A stretch of 9,500 nucleotides of DNA from a virus (Duplodnaviria > Heunggongvirae > Uroviricota > Caudoviricetes). Below are positions 1-9,500 of the stretch, one piece after another. The DNA is taken from positions 1 to 9,500 of IMG/VR virus record IMGVR_UViG_2547132272_000020; one strand, written 5' to 3'. The notes under the pieces were generated by a model. That model made no database searches. It saw nothing but the letters and a program-made list of their open reading frames with translations, and was not told where the DNA came from. The translations under genes were made by a program, and so were the position numbers. Within the stretch, counting starts at the first letter, position 1. Each line of letters opens with the position of its first letter.

Positions 1-738
1 AACACCACGGATTTTCAGTTCCCCGGTCATCAAATCACCAGATTTTTTTACATATCGCAGATCAAAATCTGAATAGATATTGCCGGGGTTTATCACGCTG
101 AAATAGCTTTTCTCGCTATCAAGAAGGCAAATCAAAGGAATACCCTTAATGATATCGTTCGCTACCAGCTCGGACTTGTTCCCCTTATAAAGCGGGAACG
201 TACCAAGAACCTTTCCGCCCAGTGTTAATTGAAGTGTCGCGGCATTGGTATTGTTCTGAACGGGGAAAACGATAATCGGGGTTCGTAGCGTCCAGTCTGT
301 ACCTCCATTAACAAAAAACGTCGCGGGAAGCTCCAGAGTCAGCGCGTTTGCAGTGCCGCCAGCAACTCCCGCAATATAATGACCACTCTGAAGCTGCGCT
401 ATCTGTACGAAATGGTTTTCCGAACCACGCGTGGCAAAGTTAGCCACAACGTCATTAAGGGACCAACCTTTCGCGGTTGTTCCTTCCTGCCCACGAATGA
501 CTTTCAACACATCACCGCTTACCGATACCAGGTGACAAATCTCAAATGCAGACTCTTTATTATCGGTAAGCGTAATTTTTGCATAGACACGTTGCCCGTT
601 CGATTTATTTTCAAAATCGGCAGAAAGCAATTTTGCAAATTTAGCCCCTGTACCGGGCATTACCGGAATATCAGTCTGAATCGTGGTGATATCACCAGCC
701 AGTGCTGAAACAACGTTATTGCCAAATCCAAGAATCAT
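1..738 (-). CDS. phage tail fiber protein, N-terminal part (partial; continues past window start)
   Basis: Minus-strand frame is open from the ATG at 738-736 through position 1; I checked all 246 codons and found no stop. The ATG overlaps the TGA of the upstream gene (ATGA). Translation starts MILGFGNNVVSALAGDITTIQTDIPVMPGTGAKFAKLL...KITLTDNKESAFEICHLVSVSGDVLKVIRGQEG... and contains ...SGDLMTGELKI..., which reads like the N-terminal region of enterobacterial myophage tail fibers. Position directly after the gp48/gpI-position gene fits. The family call is recollection, not a search. This ORF is absent from the supplied track because it runs off the window. Confidence 0.75.
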   Translation of the reverse strand, partial: MILGFGNNVVSALAGDITTIQTDIPVMPGTGAKFAKLLSADFENKSNGQRVYAKITLTDNKESAFEICHLVSVSGDVLKVIRGQEGTTAKGWSLNDVVANFATRGSENHFVQIAQLQSGHYIAGVAGGTANALTLELPATFFVNGGTDWTLRTPIIVFPVQNNTNAATLQLTLGGKVLGTFPLYKGNKSELVANDIIKGIPLICLLDSEKSYFSVINPGNIYSDFDLRYVKKSGDLMTGELKIRGV

Positions 739-1361
739 TTTTGAATCACCGTTGTTGCATAGGAATAAATAAAAGGGAGTTTTACATATTTCTGGTCAAT
801 GGCATCTTTCAGAAAATAGCCTATACCATCGCCATACTCTGGTATCTGAATAGAAAAAACGCTGTCCGATACTGTCACACTCACATCAAAAGTGTGCTGC
901 AACGGCGGGTCTATTCCGTTTTTTCCATGAATGAACCGCGCCACACGTCGCTTTAACCAGTCAATGCAGAAATGCGAACCGTCAGCCTTATAAAAATTCC
1001 ACGTTAATATTCGTTTGAAATAATCATCAGGTACATACGATGCCTGCCCCGGAACATAATTCCGCATTGCCGCATAAGGGATTGTATTGTATTCAATGGT
1101 ATCGTATGCGCCGCGTGCAATAGCCTCCTCGGAAACCTGTAGTAAAGGCCTTTCAACGCCATAAATCCCGAGTGCAATCCAGTCCAGCAATTGCCCGGTT
1201 ATTGATTCCGATGTCCAGCATGGCAATGCCAGATTGTTGAGTGAATCGAGGTATTCCTGAGCAATTTCATTGTATGCATCAAAGAACGCAACAACATTCG
1301 GATCATCTCTGTACTGCACAAATGGATAAGCAGGGAGAATTTTCTCAGTCAGATATTGCAT
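735..1361 (-). CDS. baseplate/tail protein in the Mu gp48 (DUF2313-type) or P2 gpI position
   Basis: The track gives 735..1469, but its first 36 codons lie inside the J-like gene. The ATG at 1361-1359 (MQYLTEKILPAYPFVQYRDDPNVVAFFDAYNEIAQEY...) is preceded by CAGGT about 8 nt upstream and overlaps the J-like stop by 17 nt. Its stop overlaps the tail-fiber ATG. Function is assigned mainly by synteny between baseplate J and tail fiber. Confidence 0.55.
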   Translation of the reverse strand: MQYLTEKILPAYPFVQYRDDPNVVAFFDAYNEIAQEYLDSLNNLALPCWTSESITGQLLDWIALGIYGVERPLLQVSEEAIARGAYDTIEYNTIPYAAMRNYVPGQASYVPDDYFKRILTWNFYKADGSHFCIDWLKRRVARFIHGKNGIDPPLQHTFDVSVTVSDSVFSIQIPEYGDGIGYFLKDAIDQKYVKLPFIYSYATTVIQK

Positions 1362-2571
1362 ACTTGTTGACCTGAACCTGTGATGCCACCGTTGAAAAAT
1401 AGGAATAGGTATCGCCATAAACCAGGCTTGTGTCTTTCGCCGGAAGAACAATATGGCCGTTAATACCAATGCTCACACTGATTGTTGAGATCAACGTCGC
1501 ATCAACCAGCAACCTGACGGAACTGGTAAAAATATCCTGGATACGCAGAAGATTTATCGGGTGTCCGACTTCAATTGAATTGATGTAATCAGCAACGTTT
1601 TGCTGCACAGCCATAGCAATACCCGCCGGATCAACATAATCATCAGACACCGTGTTCCAGGTGATTAGCACCATGACGTTTTGTGATGACGGGATAACGA
1701 ACGGCACCTGATAAACGTCCGGTGAAACGGTTATTGAAACCGTGCGTTTTTCCACTGCCGCACCGGATGGATTGCTAACATCGTTGGTCAGTTTCGAAAT
1801 ATCCGGTACAGATTTGTAAATCGCATAAGCCACATCATACGGATCACCGCCACCAACAACCGCAACCCATTTCCCCAGCGACGACTGCCGGAAAGAAATC
1901 AGGTTTTCTCGCACACCGCTTACTGATTTGAGCATCGCTTTAAAGCAATCCGGTGTTCCCTGCACACCAAACATGCCGGACTCCATAACTTCGGCGCGAT
2001 ATGATGCCCATGTCTGCGCCTCCTGACCGGGCATACCTGCGGTAAGGTTCGTGCATTTTACAGGCTGGTCTTTGGGTACTGATGTAATGACCTGCGTTAC
2101 AGTCCCTTCCGGTACAGCCCATGAGCCTGACGTTGTGGCCACACAGTAGACTGGCTCAGTCTGCCCGCTTTCCGGTACCACCGTATCGCGGGAAACCGCA
2201 TACTGGTAGTTACCATCTCCAACCACAAATCCTTTAGGGATACCAAACCCCGGCAACGCCTCAAACACCACGTATACCGCCGTATTTGTACTTAATCCCT
2301 TCTGTGCTCCATAAATGTTTCCGAGTTGCATCAGTAACGGAATATTTGCGCCGTATGGGCTTACGGAGTTAATAAGGTCCACCCGCGCCTGGTCTATTAA
2401 TGCCAGCGCCCCGACTGCCGTGCTGGCAAGGTCTGTAATAAGTCCCGCAGGAAGGTTGGCTGTATATCCAGGTACTTTTTCAGCAACTCTGGTGATAAGA
2501 TTTGCGAGCAAATCATTGGGTGGCGTAGGCTGCGCACCCGCACTGGTCATAGTAATTGGTATTTCTGACAT
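1345..2571 (-). CDS. baseplate J-like protein (Mu gp47 / P2 gpJ / T4 gp6 class)
   Basis: A 408-codon ORF (MSEIPITMTSAGAQPTPPNDLLANLITRVAEKVPGYTANLPAGLITDLASTAVGALALIDQARVDL...). Size and position (before the gp48-like and tail fiber genes) match the baseplate J family, and the N-terminal region resembles J-family proteins from memory. No recognisable Shine-Dalgarno precedes the ATG at 2571; the upstream sequence is AT-rich and is the antisense of the RBS of the divergent 158-aa gene. Confidence 0.7.
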   Translation of the reverse strand: MSEIPITMTSAGAQPTPPNDLLANLITRVAEKVPGYTANLPAGLITDLASTAVGALALIDQARVDLINSVSPYGANIPLLMQLGNIYGAQKGLSTNTAVYVVFEALPGFGIPKGFVVGDGNYQYAVSRDTVVPESGQTEPVYCVATTSGSWAVPEGTVTQVITSVPKDQPVKCTNLTAGMPGQEAQTWASYRAEVMESGMFGVQGTPDCFKAMLKSVSGVRENLISFRQSSLGKWVAVVGGGDPYDVAYAIYKSVPDISKLTNDVSNPSGAAVEKRTVSITVSPDVYQVPFVIPSSQNVMVLITWNTVSDDYVDPAGIAMAVQQNVADYINSIEVGHPINLLRIQDIFTSSVRLLVDATLISTISVSIGINGHIVLPAKDTSLVYGDTYSYFSTVASQVQVNKYAISD

Positions 2572-2608
2572 ATTTATTTATCACTTGAATACATTATAAG
2601 GAGATATA

Positions 2609-3085
2609 ATGCGGTTCTATTTCAACAAAAAAGGTCTTTCTGGTATTTCTGTATCAAGCGGAAGGAGTAGTGGTGGCTGTGGAACATTAATTGGAGTTGT
2701 CTTTATACTTTATTTAATTGGCCATTTTTCATCACCTTCCGATGAAGATATTAAAAATGAATCATCATCTTATAAGACAGCAGTCGTTAAAAGCGACAAA
2801 ATAATTTCCGAAATCTGCGATCAGTTTAGCACTGATGATTCCGCAAAAATATTTTTTAATTCAAATCTAAACAAACATTGGTATAAAACAAAAGTTAAAG
2901 TAAATTCACTATCAGATCAAAGATTATCTGCGATTGATTTCAAAAATCCAGAATTAAAGTATGAAATAAGAATGTCTGATTCAAGACCATTAAGAGTAGG
3001 GGATATTATTTCCGTTGAATTTGTACCTACTGAATTCAGTAAGTATTCATGCGAAATCAGTGGCACAATAGGTAAGTACAAGTAA
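2609..3085 (+). CDS. hypothetical membrane-anchored protein (AT-rich cargo gene); predicted basic N-terminus, one TM helix, ~115-aa C-terminal domain
   Basis: Strong RBS: AAGGAG ends about 7 nt before ATG 2609 (ttataaggagatataATG). The N-terminus MRFYFNKKGLSGISVSSGRSSGG is basic, followed by the hydrophobic stretch CGTLIGVVFILYLIGHF and then an acidic stretch SSPSDEDIKNESS. Stop TAA at 3083-3085 is followed immediately by a perfect hairpin terminator. Composition is markedly more A+T-rich than the tail genes. No family recognised. Confidence 0.65.
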   Translation: MRFYFNKKGLSGISVSSGRSSGGCGTLIGVVFILYLIGHFSSPSDEDIKNESSSYKTAVVKSDKIISEICDQFSTDDSAKIFFNSNLNKHWYKTKVKVNSLSDQRLSAIDFKNPELKYEIRMSDSRPLRVGDIISVEFVPTEFSKYSCEISGTIGKYK

Positions 3086-3090
3086 CCTCA

Positions 3091-3123
3091 AAAAAAACAG
3101 CCCGCTGAACGCGGGCTGTTTTT
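3091..3123. terminator. bidirectional intrinsic terminator between convergent cargo genes
   Basis: aaaaaaACAGCCCGCtgaacGCGGGCTGTttttt: a perfect 9-bp GC-rich stem (3097-3105 / 3111-3119) with a 5-nt loop, flanked by an A-run on one side and a T-run on the other, so each strand gets hairpin plus U-tract. It sits between the stop of the 158-aa gene (3085) and the stop of the minus-strand gene (3122-3124). Confidence 0.8.
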
Positions 3124-3511
3124 AATATACGCCACGAATAAGATCTTGGGTAAAAACATCACATCCTTCGCTACCTAATTGCAGTCTTTTCTTAAAGTAC
3201 TCAATAATACCGTCATTATGAACGCCATTTTTGGAAATTTTTAACCACGTATTGCTCCATTCTATACTTTGGAGTTTTGTTAAAGCCGCTTTTTCATTTC
3301 CTTCACTAACCAAGCGACACGATTCTGATAGTTGATCAGTTACAATCATTTCATTTCTCATATGCTGAAGCAATTGTCGCTGTTCTTCGCTTAAAGTAAC
3401 ATCTTGATTAGTAATGAGTCTTTCTGATTTTTCAATTGGCGTACCAATCGCACACCAAGAGACGAATAAAATTGTAAATAAAGGGAGTGTAATTTTTATA
3501 CTGACCGACAT
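3122..3511 (-). CDS. hypothetical secreted/periplasmic protein with N-terminal signal peptide (AT-rich cargo gene)
   Basis: The track gives 3122..3517 starting at a GTG. The ATG two codons downstream (3511-3509) is preceded by GAGGTG and gives MSVSIKITLPLFTILFVSWCAIG|TPIEKSERL...: short polar n-region with Lys, hydrophobic core, small residues before a likely signal peptidase I site. It is not a lipobox (no [GAS]-C). The mature part has two Cys. Composition is AT-rich. No family recognised. Confidence 0.6.
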   Translation of the reverse strand: MSVSIKITLPLFTILFVSWCAIGTPIEKSERLITNQDVTLSEEQRQLLQHMRNEMIVTDQLSESCRLVSEGNEKAALTKLQSIEWSNTWLKISKNGVHNDGIIEYFKKRLQLGSEGCDVFTQDLIRGVY

Positions 3512-3517
3512 AATCAC

Positions 3518-3830
3518 CTCATTATCAAATGTTCATGCGGATTTTATCAACGGTTTCCCTCTATTCAAATCAGACTTTACATCCATGAGCTATTGAGTAT
3601 GATTATGCGCATGAGGCGTCGAAACCTCTTTCACGCGGCCTAGACCAACCCCGTCAGTGTTGGATTTTTTATGCCTACAATTCAGTGATGGCACAATGTG
3701 CGGTCACATCCCCGATCAATGTCGGGAGGGCGACGAATACAACACCCGAAAGGGAAATAAGTCCGCGGTTTCGTGAAGCCGTTTCGAACCTCCTGGCACC
3801 ACAATTTCGAAAAAATTTCACGAGGTTTCT
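3518..3830. promoter_or_regulatory. divergent control region and long leader upstream of the antirepressor gene, with repeated motif and a hairpin plus T6
   Basis: Three copies of a motif TCGAAA(C)-N3-4-TTCACG: 3618-3635 (direct), 3772-3789 (inverted) and 3805-3822 (direct, abutting the GAGG Shine-Dalgarno of the antirepressor gene). Hairpin CCAAC-N8-GTTGG followed by ATTTTTT at 3646-3670. Candidate plus-strand sigma70 promoter TTTACA (3576-3581), 16-bp spacer, TATGAT (3598-3603). Direct repeats TTATCAA / TTATCAA / TATTCAAAT at 3522-3571. All sites are read by eye. Confidence 0.35.
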
Positions 3831-4388
3831 ATGACCAGCCAATTAATTCCCGTATTCAACGGCATTGTTTCAAACGAAACTACCCTTCTCTGCAACGCTC
3901 GCGATCTGCACACCTTTCTCGAAGTAGGTAAACGCTTTGCTACTTGGATCACCGAGCGAATCGGCGAGTATGAATTCATAGAAAATCAGGACTACATAGC
4001 TATTTCCCAAAAACGGGAAATAGGTCACGGACGAGGGAAAAAGGACTACCACCTCACCCTGGACACCGCCAAAGAACTGGCAATGGTCGAGCGCAACGAA
4101 AAAGGCCGCCAGATCCGCCGATACTTCATCGAGTGCGAGAAGAAGCTGCGCGAGGATACCACCAGCACACAATCCCCTCTGAATGTTGACATCATCATGC
4201 GCGTCAGAAACGGCTCGGTTACCCACATTGAGCACCACAAATCAGGCTCAGTTATAACCACAGAATGGGCAATTCACTTACTACGCAAAAGTGGATGGAT
4301 TGTCATGCCACGCGATGAACTTCTTAACACGCCACTGGCCCAACTGATGCCCGAAAATTTGACTCAAACCGGAACCTGCGTCCGGTAA
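3831..4388 (+). CDS. AntA/AntB-family phage antirepressor-like protein (185 aa)
   Basis: GAGG lies 5 nt before ATG 3831. The translation MTSQLIPVFNGIVSNETTLLCNARDLHTFLEVGKRFATWITERIGEYEFIENQDYIAISQ...KDYHLTLDTAKELAMVERNEKGRQIRRYFIECEKKLRE matches my recollection of the AntA N-terminal domain signature (LH.FLEVG..F..WI..RI..Y.F.E..D... YHLTLD.AKELAMVERNEKG...R.YFIECE) found in enterobacterial prophage antirepressors. Orientation is opposite to the tail genes. The 3' end overlaps the 3' end of the convergent gp25-like gene by 25 nt (4364-4388). Confidence 0.8.
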   Translation: MTSQLIPVFNGIVSNETTLLCNARDLHTFLEVGKRFATWITERIGEYEFIENQDYIAISQKREIGHGRGKKDYHLTLDTAKELAMVERNEKGRQIRRYFIECEKKLREDTTSTQSPLNVDIIMRVRNGSVTHIEHHKSGSVITTEWAIHLLRKSGWIVMPRDELLNTPLAQLMPENLTQTGTCVR

Positions 4389-4711
4389 CTGGTCCCATTA
4401 AAAAACACAACATCGATGTTATAGGTGGGGTTCTCTGCCCCATCTACCTTTGAAATTGCCAGCGATGCAAAATACCCGGCAAACTGTTGCTGAACCATGT
4501 TCACATAGTAGTCCGGGTAAATTTGCTGCACGATGCACTGCTGCGCTGGAATGCCGTAATTCGCGTAAAACGGCGACTCCCCCAACCCCAGCTTTAACGT
4601 CTGAATGAGCGTCGTCAGCCAGCCGTAGGAGAAATCACCGCTGGCGTCAGATTCTACAGCAACCCATTTTTTGTTGCCGTTCGCGTCGGTGACGCGGCCC
4701 CATGTTCTCAT
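4364..4711 (-). CDS. putative baseplate wedge protein, gp25 / P2 gpW / Mu gp46 class (115 aa)
   Basis: AAGG lies about 7 nt before ATG 4711. Size (115 aa) and position between the spike and baseplate J genes fit gp25-like proteins. The segment GLGESPFYANYGIP has the same G-E-(6 residues)-Y-G-x-P spacing as the signature I recall from gpW/TssE-type proteins (for example ...GSRVMRRDYGS... in P2 gpW). This is recollection and needs a profile search. Confidence 0.5.
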   Translation of the reverse strand: MRTWGRVTDANGNKKWVAVESDASGDFSYGWLTTLIQTLKLGLGESPFYANYGIPAQQCIVQQIYPDYYVNMVQQQFAGYFASLAISKVDGAENPTYNIDVVFFNGTSYRTQVPV

Positions 4712-4714
4712 GCG

Positions 4715-4879
4715 TCAACCTTTCAAGTAAATTAGGGTACCGGTAGCCAGAGCGGTACAAATGATCCACGCTACTGGAGTCAGAATATGCCGAATACCCT
4801 GACATACTGCGATTATTCTCGCAGCCTTATCAGCTCCTTGTGGGGTTGTCTCAGCCTTAAGAATCAGTTCGCTATCCAT
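4715..4879 (-). CDS. small hypothetical membrane peptide B (54 aa), translationally coupled to the downstream gp25-like gene
   Basis: Not in the track (below size cutoff). ATG 4879-4877 is preceded by AAAGG 6 nt upstream. Translation MDSELILKAETTPQGADKAARIIAVCQGIRHILTPVAWIICTALATGTLIYLKG: polar N-half and a ~21-residue hydrophobic C-terminal segment. Its TGA stop (4717-4715) lies 3 nt before the ATG of the 115-aa gene. Its start overlaps the stop of ORF A by 8 nt. Confidence 0.4.
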   Translation of the reverse strand: MDSELILKAETTPQGADKAARIIAVCQGIRHILTPVAWIICTALATGTLIYLKG

Positions 4880-5039
4880 TTAGAACCTTTATGATCTCTG
4901 CGATTCCCGGAAGCGATTTAGCAACTGCAAACCCTCCGATAACTATAAGAACTGCATAAAACATTCTTCTCAGAACCGGACTTCTTTCGAGCAATTTTAG
5001 AGCTTCCACAATCCAGTCTCCTCCGCTAAAATTAATCAC
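4872..5039 (-). CDS. small hypothetical membrane peptide A (55 aa from GTG; 30 aa if started at the internal ATG 4964)
   Basis: Not in the track. GTG 5039-5037 is preceded by GGAGG with a 6-nt spacer (TTGGAGGTCTTCCGTG). Translation (M)INFSGGDWIVEALKLLERSPVLRRMFYAVLIVIGGFAVAKSLPGIAEIIKVLNG, with a hydrophobic C-terminal segment. Stop TAG is at 4874-4872. Start codon choice is uncertain. Confidence 0.35.
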   Translation of the reverse strand: MINFSGGDWIVEALKLLERSPVLRRMFYAVLIVIGGFAVAKSLPGIAEIIKVLNG

Positions 5040-5084
5040 GGAAGACCTCCAAACATACGTAATTATCCCTTGCCTTATTCAAGG

Positions 5085-5126
5085 TCAGAAACAGAAAGCC
5101 CCGACTGTTTGCCCAGTCGGGGCTTT
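5085..5126 (-). terminator. intrinsic terminator downstream of the spike gene (hairpin is symmetric enough to act on both strands)
   Basis: AAAGCCCCGACTG tttgcc CAGTCGGGGCTTT: perfect 13-bp stem (5095-5107 / 5114-5126) with a 6-nt loop. On the minus strand it is followed by UUUCUGUUUCUG (5094-5085). It lies 39 nt after the spike stop (5165). Confidence 0.7.
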
Positions 5127-5164
5127 CGCTTTATGGATAGAATTTAAAGTGAAATGAACCGGTA

Positions 5165-5878
5165 TTAACCCGGATTTGGTTTCTTTGACGTGATCGTGCT
5201 GTTGCCGCTTTGAACCCCAGTCACATCGTGGCTGTGACCGCTGGCGCTGACACCTTTTATCATCGCGTCGTTTTGCACAGTAAGCGGGCCAATCAGCGAA
5301 GCGGTTGTATCCTTCATCTGGGCTTTGTCCTGGACGATCGGTCCGTTGAGGTGAATTTTCCCGTTCAGGAAAATATCTTCGGCCTCGAGGTAAACAGCTT
5401 TCGACTTTTGCCTGATTTCTTCCGGTGCCACCGTTACCGAGCTACTGCCGTCCTCTGTTTTGAGGATCGCGCCATCCGGACCGTACAAAACGATCTTTTG
5501 CGGATCTTCGTCGGACCAGTCCTTGTTTGCCAGTGGCACGAAAAACAGTGGAGTGAGCGACATCGAGTAAGAGAGCGTCGCCATACCGGTTCCCAATCCG
5601 GACACACCGCGCAGGGATACATCAGCGGCAATTGTTACTCCTCGATCGCCCGGCTGTATCGGGTAACGAATATACGGGAATGTGGCGACAGGGATTGTTA
5701 TCTGCGGAAAGTTGATCCCCTCCGGCAGCATATCAAACTGAACTGTCACTATCTGCCCGCTGACACCGACAACATGGCAGGGCAATTCACGACCTTTAAG
5801 CTCGGCTTGCTGGTTACCAGAACTGGTCATCATCTCCGACAGCGTTCGGAGAAACGGTAATTTTTGAGCGTTTGACAT
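5165..5878 (-). CDS. baseplate spike protein (P2 gpV / Mu gp45 class), 237 aa
   Basis: ATG 5878-5876 overlaps the TAA of the upstream gene (TAATG). Position follows the hub-like gene. The C-terminal region ...MIKGVSASGHSHDVTGVQSGNSTITSKKPNPG carries an H-x-H motif (5228-5236) near the end, as expected for metal-binding apexes of gp5/gpV/gp45-type spikes. Family is assigned by order, size and this motif. Confidence 0.65.
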   Translation of the reverse strand: MSNAQKLPFLRTLSEMMTSSGNQQAELKGRELPCHVVGVSGQIVTVQFDMLPEGINFPQITIPVATFPYIRYPIQPGDRGVTIAADVSLRGVSGLGTGMATLSYSMSLTPLFFVPLANKDWSDEDPQKIVLYGPDGAILKTEDGSSSVTVAPEEIRQKSKAVYLEAEDIFLNGKIHLNGPIVQDKAQMKDTTASLIGPLTVQNDAMIKGVSASGHSHDVTGVQSGNSTITSKKPNPG

Positions 5879-6885
5879 TACACCCTCGCCCAGTTCTCAG
5901 CATATGCCTCAAATACCGTCACCCAGGCATCGCCATCGGCTGTCAGATACGAACCAATGTGTCTGACCGATTTCACAAGAAATTTCCCGGTGAACGTGGT
6001 CGAATTTTTTGCGATAACGCTGGGTGCCGTTGTATTAGCCATCACAATCGACGCAGCACCTGAATATAGCCCCTCCGGCAGTTTAACCACATCACCACAT
6101 CTGATATCGCCCCTCATAGGGCATTTGAAGCTGACGGTAAACGGCGCTATCCATGTCGGCTGCCCGACCAGTTCATGGGCATGAATTGTTTTTGGCTCAC
6201 CCCACTTTGCCGATGCGTTATCGTAGATTCGTATTCTGTCGGAAAGAATACTGATGGCGATTCCGCTGTATTTCTCATCGCGCATCATTGCAATTGAAGC
6301 ACTACGGAGGACCATAGCCAGCGAACCAATATCTTCGTAGGTTCCATTCCACGGTTCCGGCAAAACGAGGCTGTCGCTGACAGTACAATCGATCAACTTA
6401 TTCGGAAATGCCTTTTGCAACGCACGGGAGATTACATCACCAACCTTTTCCCCTTTAAGCCCCTCCCCCTCGATAGAGAACGGTTTACCATCATCTGTTT
6501 TGCGTACGGTTGGATTTATTACCAGGTTTAAGGTCTGGTTCGTGCCGATCCAGTTGGCATAGGCCAGATAAATTTCGCCATAAATAACCTCACCCTGTTG
6601 CTGTGGATTTGCCAAAGGCAATCCCTCAACAAAGCCCGCTTTCATACGGACCAGACACCCCTGCAAACTCACGCTTTGCTTCAGCATGTCGATAGGCAAA
6701 CCGTATATTGTGAGCATCGTTCCTGAATTCACTACATCAAGACCCGCTACCTCCACATCAAATTCAACATGTAGCCCACACCCGGGGGTTTTACTGGTAT
6801 CAAAAGGCCCGATAGGTTTACCGTTGCAATCCACTGGCGGCTTGCCTGTTTTAGGATTGATGATTTCCAGTCGGTAATAGCGCAT
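5878..6885 (-). CDS. putative baseplate hub protein (Mu gp44 / P2 gpD position), 335 aa
   Basis: The ATG at 6885-6883 overlaps the upstream TAA (TAATG), and its own TAA overlaps the spike ATG. Assignment is by synteny (immediately upstream of the spike gene) and size; I recognise no motif with confidence. Confidence 0.5.
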   Translation of the reverse strand: MRYYRLEIINPKTGKPPVDCNGKPIGPFDTSKTPGCGLHVEFDVEVAGLDVVNSGTMLTIYGLPIDMLKQSVSLQGCLVRMKAGFVEGLPLANPQQQGEVIYGEIYLAYANWIGTNQTLNLVINPTVRKTDDGKPFSIEGEGLKGEKVGDVISRALQKAFPNKLIDCTVSDSLVLPEPWNGTYEDIGSLAMVLRSASIAMMRDEKYSGIAISILSDRIRIYDNASAKWGEPKTIHAHELVGQPTWIAPFTVSFKCPMRGDIRCGDVVKLPEGLYSGAASIVMANTTAPSVIAKNSTTFTGKFLVKSVRHIGSYLTADGDAWVTVFEAYAENWARV

Positions 6886-7151
6886 TACGAAACCTCAAAC
6901 TGATTAGAACTTTCACGAAAAACGAGTTTCCCCGGCGAGCAAGGCAGCGCCAGATTGATGTCGTAATTGTCAGGTGACGCGATCAACGGTGTGTACACAA
7001 TCACGTCGCCAGAACTGTCTTTCAGTTCCAGATAGTAACGATTTGCATACAGATTAAACGGAACGCGGGCGAATGTTTCATATTTTCCGATTCTGGCCGT
7101 GAACTGAAACGGACCTCGCCCGTCCGGTTTGAAAGGAATTAACGTTGTCAT
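6885..7151 (-). CDS. small tail-module protein of unknown function (88 aa)
   Basis: ATG 7151-7149 overlaps the TGA of the upstream gene (ATGA). The stop overlaps the start of the hub-like gene. Compact coupling within the structural operon supports a real gene; function unassigned. Confidence 0.45.
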   Translation of the reverse strand: MTTLIPFKPDGRGPFQFTARIGKYETFARVPFNLYANRYYLELKDSSGDVIVYTPLIASPDNYDINLALPCSPGKLVFRESSNQFEVS

Positions 7152-7816
7152 AAGCCAATACCAAACTCCTGCACGACCTGGTTCTTAATACCTGACCACG
7201 ATAGCGGACCGTCTGACGGCATCCCTTTATCAAATTTATCCAGAACGCTCGCCAGCGTCTTTACTGTTTGTTCGACAGATGACAATGGTTGCTCAAATTC
7301 AATCTGCCAGGTGTGCTGCACTTGCTTGTTCTGCTCAGAGAAACCGGATGTATCGATAAACGACCGCATCAGGCAACGCGTATAGATAAACGACGGAGTC
7401 AGAACGGTGTAACAACCGCCATACTGGTTATGCATATCAAGCGCCATTTTCAGCGCCGTGAACGTCATTCCCTTCGTGGTGTAGCCACCGTCCTCCGTTG
7501 ATGCCGGACGGATCATCTGCATGACTACCCGGTTAGGCTTCCTGACGGTCGCATTCGCTGCCGTTACCTGGTTATAGAAATTCAGGTTGCAGATATCCTG
7601 CTGGACCAGCGTTGTCCCGGCCATTGGCGTGAATGCCGCCATCGAGCGTGTACGAATCTCTCCATGCAGCAGACCGTTCGCGATGCTTAGTCCTTCGGTC
7701 AGAACAGCAATCGGCATCACCCCGCCAGGAATTTTCGACGCTATGCCATCAACTAAAAGAATGGGCGAAACTTCAAACGCCAGTTTGAAAGCTTGTCCAA
7801 AGTAATTAAGTGACAT
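7148..7816 (-). CDS. tail-module protein following the tape measure (Mu gp43/N position), 222 aa
   Basis: ATG 7816-7814 lies 3 nt after the tape-measure TAA, with a G-rich stretch (GGGG) upstream. Part of a chain of four translationally coupled genes. Function is by position only. Confidence 0.5.
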   Translation of the reverse strand: MSLNYFGQAFKLAFEVSPILLVDGIASKIPGGVMPIAVLTEGLSIANGLLHGEIRTRSMAAFTPMAGTTLVQQDICNLNFYNQVTAANATVRKPNRVVMQMIRPASTEDGGYTTKGMTFTALKMALDMHNQYGGCYTVLTPSFIYTRCLMRSFIDTSGFSEQNKQVQHTWQIEFEQPLSSVEQTVKTLASVLDKFDKGMPSDGPLSWSGIKNQVVQEFGIGL

Positions 7817-7819
7817 CTT

Positions 7820-9500
7820 TTACCCCGGTATTTGTTGCGTTCCGGCGAGTTGTGCCAGTATGTCGGAACCCGGCGATTGTCGCACCTGAAGCTCAATTAT
7901 TGCGCGGGCATTTTTGCCAGCACCCTGAAGATTATCTCTGGCATTTCTTAGCTGATTCATAATACCAGGGTGTTGATCCAGGGCTCCCTGAATCTGAGGC
8001 AATAATTTAATTAAATATTTTACAGTCTCCATTCTCAAACTTAGATTTCCATCTCTATCAATACGACCTCCGTTATATGCCGTAAGCATTTTTGCCACAT
8101 CGCCTTTATAACGCCGATTCAGATCATTTAAAAAGCGGCCAGCCGCAAGAGTGGATTTATTTGGGTCATAAACATCATCACCCACCAGACCATACTGTTT
8201 TGCGGTGCTATCCCAGAATTGCCACAACCCCTTAGCGAATCTACCTTTTTCATCAGGAGTTCCTCTTGCCAGAGGATTCCACGAAGATTCAACTTCTGCG
8301 ATAGCTGACATCATATTTTTAGGAAGTCGATAAGTATTATTGGCTTGCTCTACAAAGTTCTGAATATTTCTCTTTAAATCATTAGGCATACGGTAATTTT
8401 TATATACATCATCCTGTTTATAAAACTCACCCGTATACTGATTTGTCATCGGGTTTGCTCCCGGCAACGCACCACCGAGATATTTATTTCCAAATGCCGC
8501 AAGAACTGGATCTGCCTGTTCAGCACCAACTCCGGTTCCGGGGAGATATTTATCTTCCCCACCGATCCATTTGATAGCTGACCATATTGCTTTTGCAATC
8601 CGGCTCACCGCCAGAGAAAAATCGTCAAGATCATTTTTAAATTGTTCGCTATTCAGCCACTTACCAAGTTTCTCCAGCCCTTCGCCAGCCTCAGCGAGAA
8701 TTTTCTGAAAATTTCCACCATTCAGAAAACCTTCAATATTGGATGTCAGCCCATCAGATGCACCTGTGATTAGTGGGTTATATCTGGCGAGAGCTGCATA
8801 CCAGGAATTTGATATTCTGTTTCCATTTACCATCAGGTTACTCACCGTATCCTGATAACCTGACTGCATAGCTGGCGTGAGGTAAGCACCGAGCAACCTA
8901 GTATTTGATGCAAATTTCTCGTTCAGTTGGGGGATCTTGTCCAGATTCGCTTCCACCTGGTTAGTTGTCGCGACATCAACAAATCCAAGCCCTTGTCCGT
9001 TGAGAATCCCCTGAGTAAGTCCTGAACCTTTATATTGCTTAACGAGAGATGCAAGCGCGCTCATAAGTTTGGGCAGATTCTTTGCTGCACCATCTCGAGG
9101 ATCAATTCCAAGACTGACCAGACCAGCATAGTTTGGATCATTTGGATTTTTCTGTGCGTTCGCCAGATGCTGAACCAGTTCTTCTGTGCCAGAAAAATAT
9201 GGCGAATAGGTGGCACGTGCGGCCTGCATCTGTGCGGTTTCCATACCCAGCCCCTGAGCCACGCTGTATTGCGCTGCAACCTTGCTCGCCATATATCCGT
9301 ACCCGAAAGCACCGACCGAACCAAGCGCCGCAATTTTGCTCCCCCAGGATACAGTCGTTTTAAACAGCGTTTTCAGTCGTGAATTGGTCGTTTTAAGCGT
9401 TGAATTGATCTGCTTGTAAGTTTTCAGCGTCCCCTGAGCGTTTTTACCCAGACTACTGAGATACTTATCAAATGAACCGCCCCGGGTTTCCTGGAGAGTG
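7820..9500 (-). CDS. tail tape measure protein, C-terminal part with lytic-transglycosylase (SLT)-like domain (partial; continues past window end)
   Basis: The track starts at ATG 9292, but the same frame is open upstream through 9499 (69 further codons, no stop: ...GKNAQGTLKTYKQINSTLKTTNSRLKTLFKTT...), so the gene is truncated by the window. Residues ~320-420 of the track ORF (about 8033-8335) contain ...MMSAIAEVESSWNPLARGTPDEKGRFAKGLWQF..., matching the family-1 lytic transglycosylase active-site signature (catalytic Glu in E-S, codon 8290-8288). The position before the baseplate genes and the low-complexity Ala/Gln/Gly-rich flanks fit a tape measure. Confidence 0.8.
   Translation of the reverse strand, partial: TLQETRGGSFDKYLSSLGKNAQGTLKTYKQINSTLKTTNSRLKTLFKTTVSWGSKIAALGSVGAFGYGYMASKVAAQYSVAQGLGMETAQMQAARATYSPYFSGTEELVQHLANAQKNPNDPNYAGLVSLGIDPRDGAAKNLPKLMSALASLVKQYKGSGLTQGILNGQGLGFVDVATTNQVEANLDKIPQLNEKFASNTRLLGAYLTPAMQSGYQDTVSNLMVNGNRISNSWYAALARYNPLITGASDGLTSNIEGFLNGGNFQKILAEAGEGLEKLGKWLNSEQFKNDLDDFSLAVSRIAKAIWSAIKWIGGEDKYLPGTGVGAEQADPVLAAFGNKYLGGALPGANPMTNQYTGEFYKQDDVYKNYRMPNDLKRNIQNFVEQANNTYRLPKNMMSAIAEVESSWNPLARGTPDEKGRFAKGLWQFWDSTAKQYGLVGDDVYDPNKSTLAAGRFLNDLNRRYKGDVAKMLTAYNGGRIDRDGNLSLRMETVKYLIKLLPQIQGALDQHPGIMNQLRNARDNLQGAGKNARAIIELQVRQSPGSDILAQLAGTQQIPG

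Follow-up and report, generated by a model that had tools for sequence, protein, structure and literature searches.

A low-GC, swappable moron-type cargo encoding two predicted envelope proteins beside the baseplate J-like gene of a Rac-SA53-like temperate phage

We analysed a 9,500-nucleotide (nt) stretch of a Caudoviricetes genome (IMG/VR record IMGVR_UViG_2547132272_000020, positions 1 to 9,500; hereafter the window), which covers the tail and baseplate module of a Rac-SA53-like temperate phage, and focused on an A+T-rich insert located between a baseplate J-like gene (hereafter J) and an AntA/AntB antirepressor gene (ant). The insert holds two convergent genes, coding for proteins of 158 and 129 amino acids (aa). 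Its features and those of its immediate flanks are, in window coordinates:

1345-2571, minus strand: J, the left flank and not part of the cargo (Pfam Baseplate_J, 8e-8; PHROG 6, baseplate wedge)
2545-2574, plus strand: putative outward promoter for the 158-aa gene, overlapping the J start codon (TGGTCA, 18 nt, TGaCATATT, an extended −10)
2577-3572, no strand assigned: cassette-specific (cargo) DNA between conserved flanks, by BLASTN against 13 related loci
2598-2603, plus strand: Shine-Dalgarno sequence AAGGAG of the 158-aa gene, 5 nt before the ATG at 2609
2609-3085, plus strand: gene for a 158-aa bitopic membrane protein, predicted to comprise a basic N-terminus, a transmembrane helix, an acidic linker, two helices and a five-strand OB-fold (oligonucleotide/oligosaccharide-binding fold) domain, with invariant Cys70 and Cys148
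3093-3123, both strands: predicted bidirectional intrinsic terminator hairpin common to both genes (GC core CAGCCCGC/GCGGGCTG, A8 upstream, T5 downstream)
3122-3511, minus strand: gene for a 129-aa protein, predicted to be exported and helical, whose signal-like N-terminus ends in VSWC-AIG, with invariant Cys65 and Cys117
3515-3520, minus strand: Shine-Dalgarno sequence GAGGTG of the 129-aa gene, overlapping an alternative GTG start
3541-3568, minus strand: sigma-70-like promoter for the 129-aa gene (TTGAAT, 16 nt, TG, TAAAAT; 9 of 12 positions with the TG, from a promoter scan)
3831-4388, plus strand: ant, the right flank, outside the cassette (Pfam AntA, 1.8e-27)

The insert is sharply bounded. 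Against the 13 related loci, homology on the J side ended at 2571-2576 in every variant with another cargo, that is, within five bases beyond the J start codon, and it returned at 3560-3612, upstream of ant. An earlier reading made without database searches (hereafter the sequence-only reading) had drawn an A+T-rich insert at 2572-3520; the insert is real, and its DNA extends past that end, from 2577 to ~3572. The compositional shift it had claimed appeared when we computed it: the GC fraction was 0.287-0.363 in 300-nt segments over 2551-3600 vs 0.49-0.55 on both sides, and the GC fraction at third codon positions was 0.23 and 0.27 for the two cargo genes vs 0.49-0.64 in six neighbouring genes. 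Also present, as that reading had it, were the strong ribosome-binding site AAGGAG with its 158-aa open reading frame and, between the two genes, a perfect inverted repeat.

This repeat is a perfect 13-base-pair stem with a 5-nt loop and has a calculated folding energy of −22 kcal/mol for each strand (z-scores −6.8 and −5.8; none of 200 shuffled sequences was as stable). A simple terminator scan did not list it and it was detected by folding; it is predicted to act as the terminator of both genes. The tail operon has to read through this hairpin to reach J, as is usual where a moron lies in an antiterminated late operon (PMC3594210).

Promoter candidates lie at both ends of the insert. The 129-aa gene is preceded, within cassette-specific DNA, by the 9 of 12 site, which is a consensus match only. 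Because only ~32 cassette-specific bases precede the ATG of the 158-aa gene, its promoter must sit in the conserved 5' end of J, and we infer that the segment 2545-2574 plays this role. The candidate, read from the sequence, matches the consensus at 8 of 12 positions plus the TG, falls below the threshold of the scan tool, which did not list it, and has a −10 element that includes the complement of the J start codon. The segment is conserved across all variants of the junction; in the variants with a 182-aa cargo its −10 reads CATAAT. With regard to the 129-aa gene, the open reading frame spans 3122-3517 on the minus strand, and the gene most likely starts at the ATG at 3511, since the GTG six bases upstream falls inside the Shine-Dalgarno sequence and RefSeq annotates a protein of 129 aa.

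Comparison with relatives showed that this J-proximal junction is a slot that accepts at least six alternative cargos (locus labels beginning with L are ours):

182-aa protein alone (phrog_31333): pPE4, L024, L025
182-aa and 154-aa (phrog_26680) proteins: Rac-SA53, L033
179-aa protein: L031
248-aa or 366-aa protein, named 'lysozyme inhibitor LprI family' in RefSeq: L030, L032, L026
158-aa gene followed by a co-directional gene for a 200-aa protein with four transmembrane segments: Salmonella L004-L009

The alternative cargos have a GC of 0.29-0.40 throughout, each starts with a signal peptide or a membrane anchor, and several hold the same divergent position beside the J start codon. The 182-, 154-, 179-, 248- and 366-aa cargos resemble the pair in junction, low GC and export but are unrelated to it in sequence; the one exception, described below, is that the C-terminus of the 366-aa protein weakly matches the core of the 129-aa protein, which is unconfirmed. 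To estimate how often each cargo occurs, the concatenated cargo-specific DNAs were compared with 5,426 complete Escherichia coli genomes, keeping the best match per record. This census gave 58 records, tallied by best cargo-DNA match with slot position not confirmed for each: 25 with the 179-aa cargo, 12 with the 248-aa, 10 with the 182- and 154-aa, 8 with the 182-aa only, 2 with the 366-aa and 1 with the 158- and 129-aa pair. J itself was found at 96 places in 89 genomes, and the pair alone, used as query, matched one genome. Most carriers were animal or enteric isolates, many of them from pigs. An empty site was also found: in a Kluyvera prophage (L034, with a 47%-identical J) a 110-aa homologue of the 115-aa tail protein encoded beyond ant overlaps the start of J by four bases. 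This was the only locus, and a distant one, from a scan of genome contigs with a baseplate J.

Together, the sharp breakpoints, the at least six alternative cargos and the Kluyvera empty site led us to conclude with high confidence that 2577-3572 is horizontally acquired, swappable moron-type cargo with the anatomy described above, and in this the sequence-only reading was right. Under the Juhala/Hendrix definition (summarised in PMC3594210), a moron is extra DNA between genes that are adjacent in relatives, with deviating G+C, with a promoter and a terminator of its own and with expression from the repressed prophage. Here, the extra DNA and the deviating composition were both observed, the terminator was recognised at the sequence and folding level, and as putative promoters there are the 9 of 12 site of the 129-aa gene and the weaker candidate of the 158-aa gene. 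A structural tail or baseplate protein was ruled out: the pair occurs in 1 of 58 cargo-bearing E. coli genomes, the 158-aa gene lies on the opposite strand and the composition breaks at the insert. Moreover, two deposited phage genomes, Rac-SA53 and pPE4, do not have the pair, so it is dispensable for virion and lysis; in our reading neither product is a virion or lysis component.

Some further observations concern the slot itself. A near-identical ribosome-binding stretch, TAAGGAGAT, precedes several unrelated cargos (window 2598-2608; L004 6478-6494; the cargo starts of L030 and L026), which could be a cassette boundary held in common or just a strong Shine-Dalgarno sequence in A+T-rich DNA. 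The 366-aa and 248-aa cargos (L026 6220-7290; L030 6226-6972) have in common an N-terminal signal peptide and an LprI-like domain, with 66% identity over the first 101 residues; their Pfam LprI hits are sub-threshold. The 366-aa protein looks like a fusion of this LprI-like N-domain, a domain homologous to a 220-aa protein found beside a distant relative of the 158-aa gene (L036) and a C-terminus weakly like the 129-aa protein. Finally, IS2 or IS1A interrupts the 182- and 154-aa cargo in two E. coli genomes (H48, H52); the slot also gathers insertion sequences.

The 158-aa protein contains a single hydrophobic segment, approximately at residues 24-40, flanked by a net charge of +4 on the N-terminal side and −2 on the C-terminal side, the basic-hydrophobic-acidic order that had been noticed before. 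Based on the positive-inside rule, the protein is probably inserted N-in, which would place its ~115-residue OB-fold domain in the periplasm. The family alignment outlined a basic N-terminus (MR.x.N.KG..S.S), a Gly-Cys just ahead of the membrane helix, an acidic S-D-[ED]-D linker and the invariant residues Cys70, Trp91, Gly131 and Cys148. An AlphaFold (AF2) model built from a four-sequence alignment consists of the transmembrane helix, then two short helices and five strands over residues 92-155, with a predicted local distance difference test score (pLDDT) of 71-80 over residues 91-150 and a mean of 59. The invariant Cys pair would fit a periplasmic OB domain, which a Cys70-Cys148 disulfide probably stabilises. 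The N-terminus MRFYFNKKGLSGISVSSGR may resemble the DUF4236 motif but gave no Pfam match, and we draw no conclusion from it.

Relatives of the 158-aa protein are few. Homologues fell into three clusters among 5.8 billion proteins, and when 1.84 billion representatives were searched exhaustively by HMMER, the family profile retrieved four real clusters and one spurious repeat protein; a 166-aa Salmonella protein (P0018) is among the relatives. Pfam gave only sub-threshold hits to unrelated domains, PHROGs gave only phrog_8815 (function unknown, E 0.004), and Foldseek of the model against BFVD gave nothing at E ≤ 0.001. A fold-level likeness was seen to the tRNA_anti-like family PF12869 and to the 'putative nucleic acid-binding lipoprotein' of PDB 3f1z, which we take to be a member of that family, with scores under the family thresholds: at the PF12869 gathering threshold of 23.5 bits the window protein had no hit, and its relative P0015 reached 11.6 bits (E 0.21). 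These are OB-fold proteins anchored by a membrane segment or a lipid, and PF12869 is itself a family without known function, so membership would give no mechanism. Another relative, 33% identical, is encoded on an IMG/VR contig in a P2-type tail cluster, between gpU and gpX and on the opposite strand; the P2-type tail was confirmed by the Pfam sheath, FII tube, GpU, tail protein X and GpD families. It is followed by the gene of the 220-aa membrane-anchored protein already mentioned (L036), whose periplasmic part shares homology with the middle of the 366-aa cargo (E 1.5e-12, database of ten sequences). The presence of the family in a P2-type tail cluster as well indicates that it moves between tail-cluster slots of unrelated phages.

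The 129-aa protein begins with a hydrophobic signal-like segment (residues 1-23) and has Cys65 and Cys117 in its mature part, where the sequence-only reading had placed two Cys. Its AF2 model is helical, with a pLDDT of 83-88 over residues 41-80 and a mean of 65. That reading had also called the N-terminus a classic Sec signal peptide; a signal-like N-terminus is there, but it is more probably a degenerate lipoprotein signal, judging from its relatives. In two diverged Salmonella relatives (P0012 and P0013) the signal peptide ends in L-S-G-C-A-S, a canonical lipobox, and Cys20 of the window protein aligns with the lipobox Cys. According to the Lol rules, Ala at +2 predicts outer-membrane sorting, and the Salmonella relatives are predicted to be lipoproteins sorted to the outer membrane. 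On the other hand, the window protein and five near-identical ones (P0005-P0009; the six are mostly from E. coli) have V-S-W-C-A-I-G at the lipobox position, outside the pattern [LVI][ASTVI][GAS]C. As Trp at −1 is not a lipobox residue, the window protein may be cut by signal peptidase I after A-I-G or stay anchored.

Homologues of the 129-aa protein formed 10 clusters in the 5.8-billion set, to which a profile re-search added none. The 153-aa protein P0010, labelled Staphylococcus aureus, is identical to it over the first ~103 residues and then diverges, and probably stems from a contaminated or chimeric assembly. A possible distant kinship emerged from the slot: over its C-terminal 70 residues, the 366-aa LprI-like cargo could be aligned end to end with the core of the 129-aa protein, both Cys being in register (hhalign P-value 0.036; Smith-Waterman score 51 vs 25 ± 4.3 for shuffles, reached by 1 of 2000). 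The match was weaker for two relatives of the 129-aa protein, and we treat this kinship as a lead, not a result.

Neither protein could be assigned to a named family, just as the sequence-only reading had expected. PADLOC and NCBIfam returned nothing at E ≤ 1 for either protein, tblastn of both against 50,697 GenBank phage records gave no match, and profile searches of the PDB gave chance-level hits only. A toxin-antitoxin or known defence system was rejected. Both proteins belong to very small, unnamed and uncharacterised families; the kind of element is well known, and its proteins are new and very rare. Their hydrophobic segments, which agree with the envelope targeting proposed earlier, make both products look envelope-targeted; the lipobox in relatives, the invariant Cys pairs and the signal peptides or membrane anchors of all alternative cargos point the same way.

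An N-in, single-pass inner-membrane protein of ~150 aa beside a small protein with a lipobox in its relatives bears a superficial likeness to a two-component spanin (i-spanin plus lipoprotein o-spanin) or to another lysis accessory. The rest of the evidence largely refutes this idea, whose probability we consider close to negligible: the predicted periplasmic domain is a beta-rich OB fold with two short helices, not a coiled coil; the two genes converge and are placed among baseplate genes; the ETEC1716 prophage, a close relative, has a separate cassette of holin, M15 endolysin and 'lysis protein'; the related functional phages Rac-SA53 and pPE4 manage without the pair; and the 158-aa gene occurs without a lipoprotein gene.

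Next, we considered whether the genes are maintained. For the 158-aa gene, three comparisons gave ratios of nonsynonymous to synonymous substitution rates (dN/dS) of 0.13-0.24; the value was 0.22 for the 129-aa gene, vs 0.03-0.04 for J and the 115-aa tail gene. Both cargo genes are under purifying selection and evolve faster than their structural neighbours. These values bear on the idea that the insert is decaying, silenced hitch-hiker DNA without current function, for which one could cite its extreme A+T-richness, typical of H-NS targets, the rarity of the cargo, the degenerate lipobox of the window allele and the truncated copies (in L014 the 158-aa gene is cut down to 86 aa, and the 129-aa gene also occurs as fragments of 90 aa). 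Decay is nonetheless improbable, given a dN/dS of 0.13-0.24 across orthologues that are 60-79% identical, reading frames that are intact in E. coli and Salmonella, and Cys residues and motifs conserved down to 33% identity.

Whether the two genes work together is a separate matter. The sequence-only reading had treated them as one module; both are present and convergent, but the pairing is not obligate. Salmonella L004 and L008 match the window precisely up to the stop codon of the 158-aa gene (3085) and then again from 3575-3592, upstream of ant, so that the hairpin and the 129-aa gene (3086-3572) were exchanged independently of the 158-aa gene, which there has the co-directional 200-aa gene as its partner. 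The 33%-identical relative has yet another partner, the 220-aa protein. The two genes are better described as separable morons. These data, and the separate translation and transcription signals of each gene, suit the view that two unrelated morons with independent functions simply abut and form no system. We regard this as quite possible while leaning away from it, since all contexts retrieved for the 129-aa gene (at least 14 places, including Salmonella L010) have it converging on an adjacent 158-aa gene as in the window, and a second envelope protein gene adjoins the 158-family gene in all three of its contexts (129-aa, 200-aa and 220-aa partners). The co-retention in L010, which keeps both genes with proteins 60% and 69% identical to those of the window, is not independent evidence of a functional link, because L010 diverged as a block (~82% DNA identity over 1001-4711).

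Our proposed explanation is that of a two-unit moron cargo. The two separable transcription units would end at the one shared hairpin. The first would run from the outward promoter over the J start, through a strong Shine-Dalgarno sequence, into the 158-aa gene, yielding an N-in inner-membrane protein with its OB-fold domain just outside the inner membrane. The second, with its own promoter-like site and Shine-Dalgarno sequence, would yield a small, helical, two-Cys protein that is Sec-exported, and a lipoprotein in the Salmonella relatives. Both products would be expressed in the lysogen and modify its envelope to its advantage. Our preferred guess for this advantage is a block of superinfecting phage after adsorption, at the stage of peptidoglycan or inner-membrane penetration, as for HK97 gp15, P22 SieA and T4 Spackle. 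Taken whole, as a lysogen-expressed envelope modifier that protects its host, the explanation is a tentative one that falls a little short of even; an anti-phage function of the cassette, argued by analogy, is a possibility that we hold with still more reserve.

One precedent is HK97 gp15, a tail-operon moron product related to YebO that excludes superinfecting phage from the inner membrane (Cumby et al. 2012, reviewed in PMC3594210); made by the prophage, it prevents injection of the genome and leaves receptors unmasked (PMC3594210). Like the cassette, it represents an extra tail-operon gene with atypical GC and a small inner-membrane product; gp15 has its own promoter and terminator, for which the cassette offers candidate promoters and a predicted terminator. 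By contrast, the 158-aa protein is larger, has a predicted periplasmic OB-fold domain and shows no sequence similarity to gp15 and no Pfam hit to YebO or an exclusion family. Exclusion by P22 SieA likewise depends on a protein of the inner membrane (PMC10883804). T4 Spackle, which inhibits the gp5 tail lysozyme, is a helical, disulfide-bonded protein of 75 aa in the periplasm (PMC7677548). The 129-aa protein resembles it in being small, exported, all-helical by prediction and endowed with one conserved Cys pair; a target analogous to that of Spackle exists in principle, as the tail module of the resident phage carries an SLT domain. However, Spackle, with 75 aa in its mature form, is no lipoprotein and comes from an early gene of a lytic phage, whereas relatives of the 129-aa protein carry a lipobox, and no sequence or fold match to Spackle (PDB 6X6O) was obtained. 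A third comparison is with the phage-exclusion lipoproteins Cor (phi80, N15 and HK022) and Llp (T5) and with the lambda Bor lipoprotein, all of which change surface properties. These are small, phage- or prophage-encoded envelope lipoproteins, as the Salmonella relatives of the 129-aa protein, with their lipobox and outer-membrane-type +2 residue, are predicted to be; the 129-aa protein differs in the absence of homology, the Trp at −1 of the window allele and its predicted helical fold.

Several results weigh against the proposed explanation. Promoter-like sites in the region are in total no more numerous than in shuffled sequences, and the candidate of the 158-aa gene lies under the scan threshold. 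Very A+T-rich genes of E. coli are often silenced by H-NS, which makes expression in the lysogen uncertain. The lipobox of the window allele is non-canonical, with Trp at −1. Confidence in the AF2 models is moderate (mean pLDDT 59 and 65), and their alignments are very shallow. No Pfam, PHROG, PADLOC or NCBIfam model of a known exclusion or defence protein matches either protein, those for exclusion families such as YebO/gp15, Imm, SieB and Ltp included. Finally, two alternative cargos are annotated as LprI-family lysozyme inhibitors, which suits a role in host fitness no less than one against phages.

The last point leads to the main rival, in which the products are lysogenic conversion factors without any anti-phage role that shield the lysogen from host or environmental insults, for example lysozyme, complement or bile, much as lambda Bor or LprI-type inhibitors do. 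In its favour, the two LprI-annotated cargos occupy the same slot, the C-terminal 70 residues of the 366-aa protein align weakly with the 129-aa core, both Cys included, the carriers are mostly animal or enteric isolates, many from pigs, and every argument from envelope localisation applies equally. Nevertheless, neither protein is detectably similar to a known inhibitor or resistance protein, the LprI link belongs to other cargos and is itself below the Pfam threshold, and the rarity of the pair (1 of 58) speaks against a strong general benefit, which is equally true of the anti-phage reading. On balance we judge a pure host-fitness role unlikely, although less so than decay.

A bolder version of the anti-phage proposal would make the J-proximal slot a hotspot reserved for proteins that act in the periplasm and there disable the parts with which incoming phage tails penetrate the envelope, be it an SLT or lysozyme domain, the spike or the tape measure. 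The 158-aa and 129-aa proteins would then be an undescribed exclusion system, with the 158-family as a constant membrane anchor for interchangeable partners (129-aa, 200-aa and 220-aa). This is conceivable because modules are shared with the LprI-like cargos and because a 158-family gene with a second envelope gene recurs in an unrelated P2-type tail cluster; we consider it a long shot.

Proteins for superinfection exclusion and lysogenic conversion are known to come from morons of tail operons, few of which have assigned functions. This locus is a compact natural experiment: between conserved flanks, a single junction takes at least six exported cargos that can replace one another and that hint at shared modules, and several of the cargos belong to families that count a handful of members worldwide. 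Should the cargos prove to exclude phages or to inhibit peptidoglycan hydrolases, the slot would be useful for mining envelope-level anti-phage proteins and would bear on phage therapy against porcine enterotoxigenic E. coli and Salmonella; if they were inert or host-fitness factors, the locus would be a case of ordinary prophage mosaicism.

The window as a whole is 95.6% identical to Escherichia phage Rac-SA53 (KU052037) across 85% of its length, and its positions 1001-4711 are 97% identical to the ETEC1716 prophage of E. coli, which lies at the Rac site, adjoining ttcA, intR and recET. A search of the literature on the RefSeq accessions and on Rac-SA53 found nothing relevant. The phage named Actinobacillus phage vB_Apl-pPE4 (L003, PP818812.1) is 94.5% identical over 67% of the window, and its assignment to an Actinobacillus host looks doubtful. 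The structural genes lie on the minus strand and are tightly coupled, as the sequence-only reading had stated and as their coordinates make visible. Besides J, they are:

4364-4711, minus strand: 115-aa protein
5165-5878, minus strand: spike-like protein
5878-6885, minus strand: baseplate hub
7820-9292, minus strand, cut by the window end: SLT-domain protein, with a peptidoglycan-cleaving domain
minus strand, in the structural series: 222-aa and 88-aa proteins
minus strand, in the structural series: 208-aa protein

Between the 115-aa gene and J the tail series has three interrupters, namely ant (plus), the 129-aa gene (minus) and the 158-aa gene (plus). The sequence-only reading had set the pair directly between a gp25-like gene and J. 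This did not hold, as ant intervenes and the gp25-like label of the 115-aa protein found no support in a Pfam or PDB sequence search. The ant gene is itself an insertion relative to the Kluyvera locus, where the 110-aa gene directly overlaps the start of J.

From 3613 on, the ant region shares ~77% identity with its ant/antB counterparts in many Stx phages. Directly upstream of the ant start codon (3831), on the same strand, lies an Rfam match to sRNA-Xcc1 (RF02221) at 3721-3805 (plus strand; 69.7 bits vs a gathering score of 53, E 2e-11), which could be a leader or a small RNA controlling ant. The tail module has further variable slots: the gap between the spike-like and 115-aa genes (4712-5090 of the window) contains small open reading frames here and a Rha/ORF11CD3 regulator gene in relatives, and the gap between the 115-aa gene and ant contains a YafO-toxin gene and a 190-aa gene in L008 and L013. 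Finally, the head-gene region of the ETEC1716 prophage (L038 9045-10481; NZ_CP122880.1 2751044-2752480) encodes a 478-aa protein that RefSeq names 'anti-CBASS protein Acb1 family protein'.

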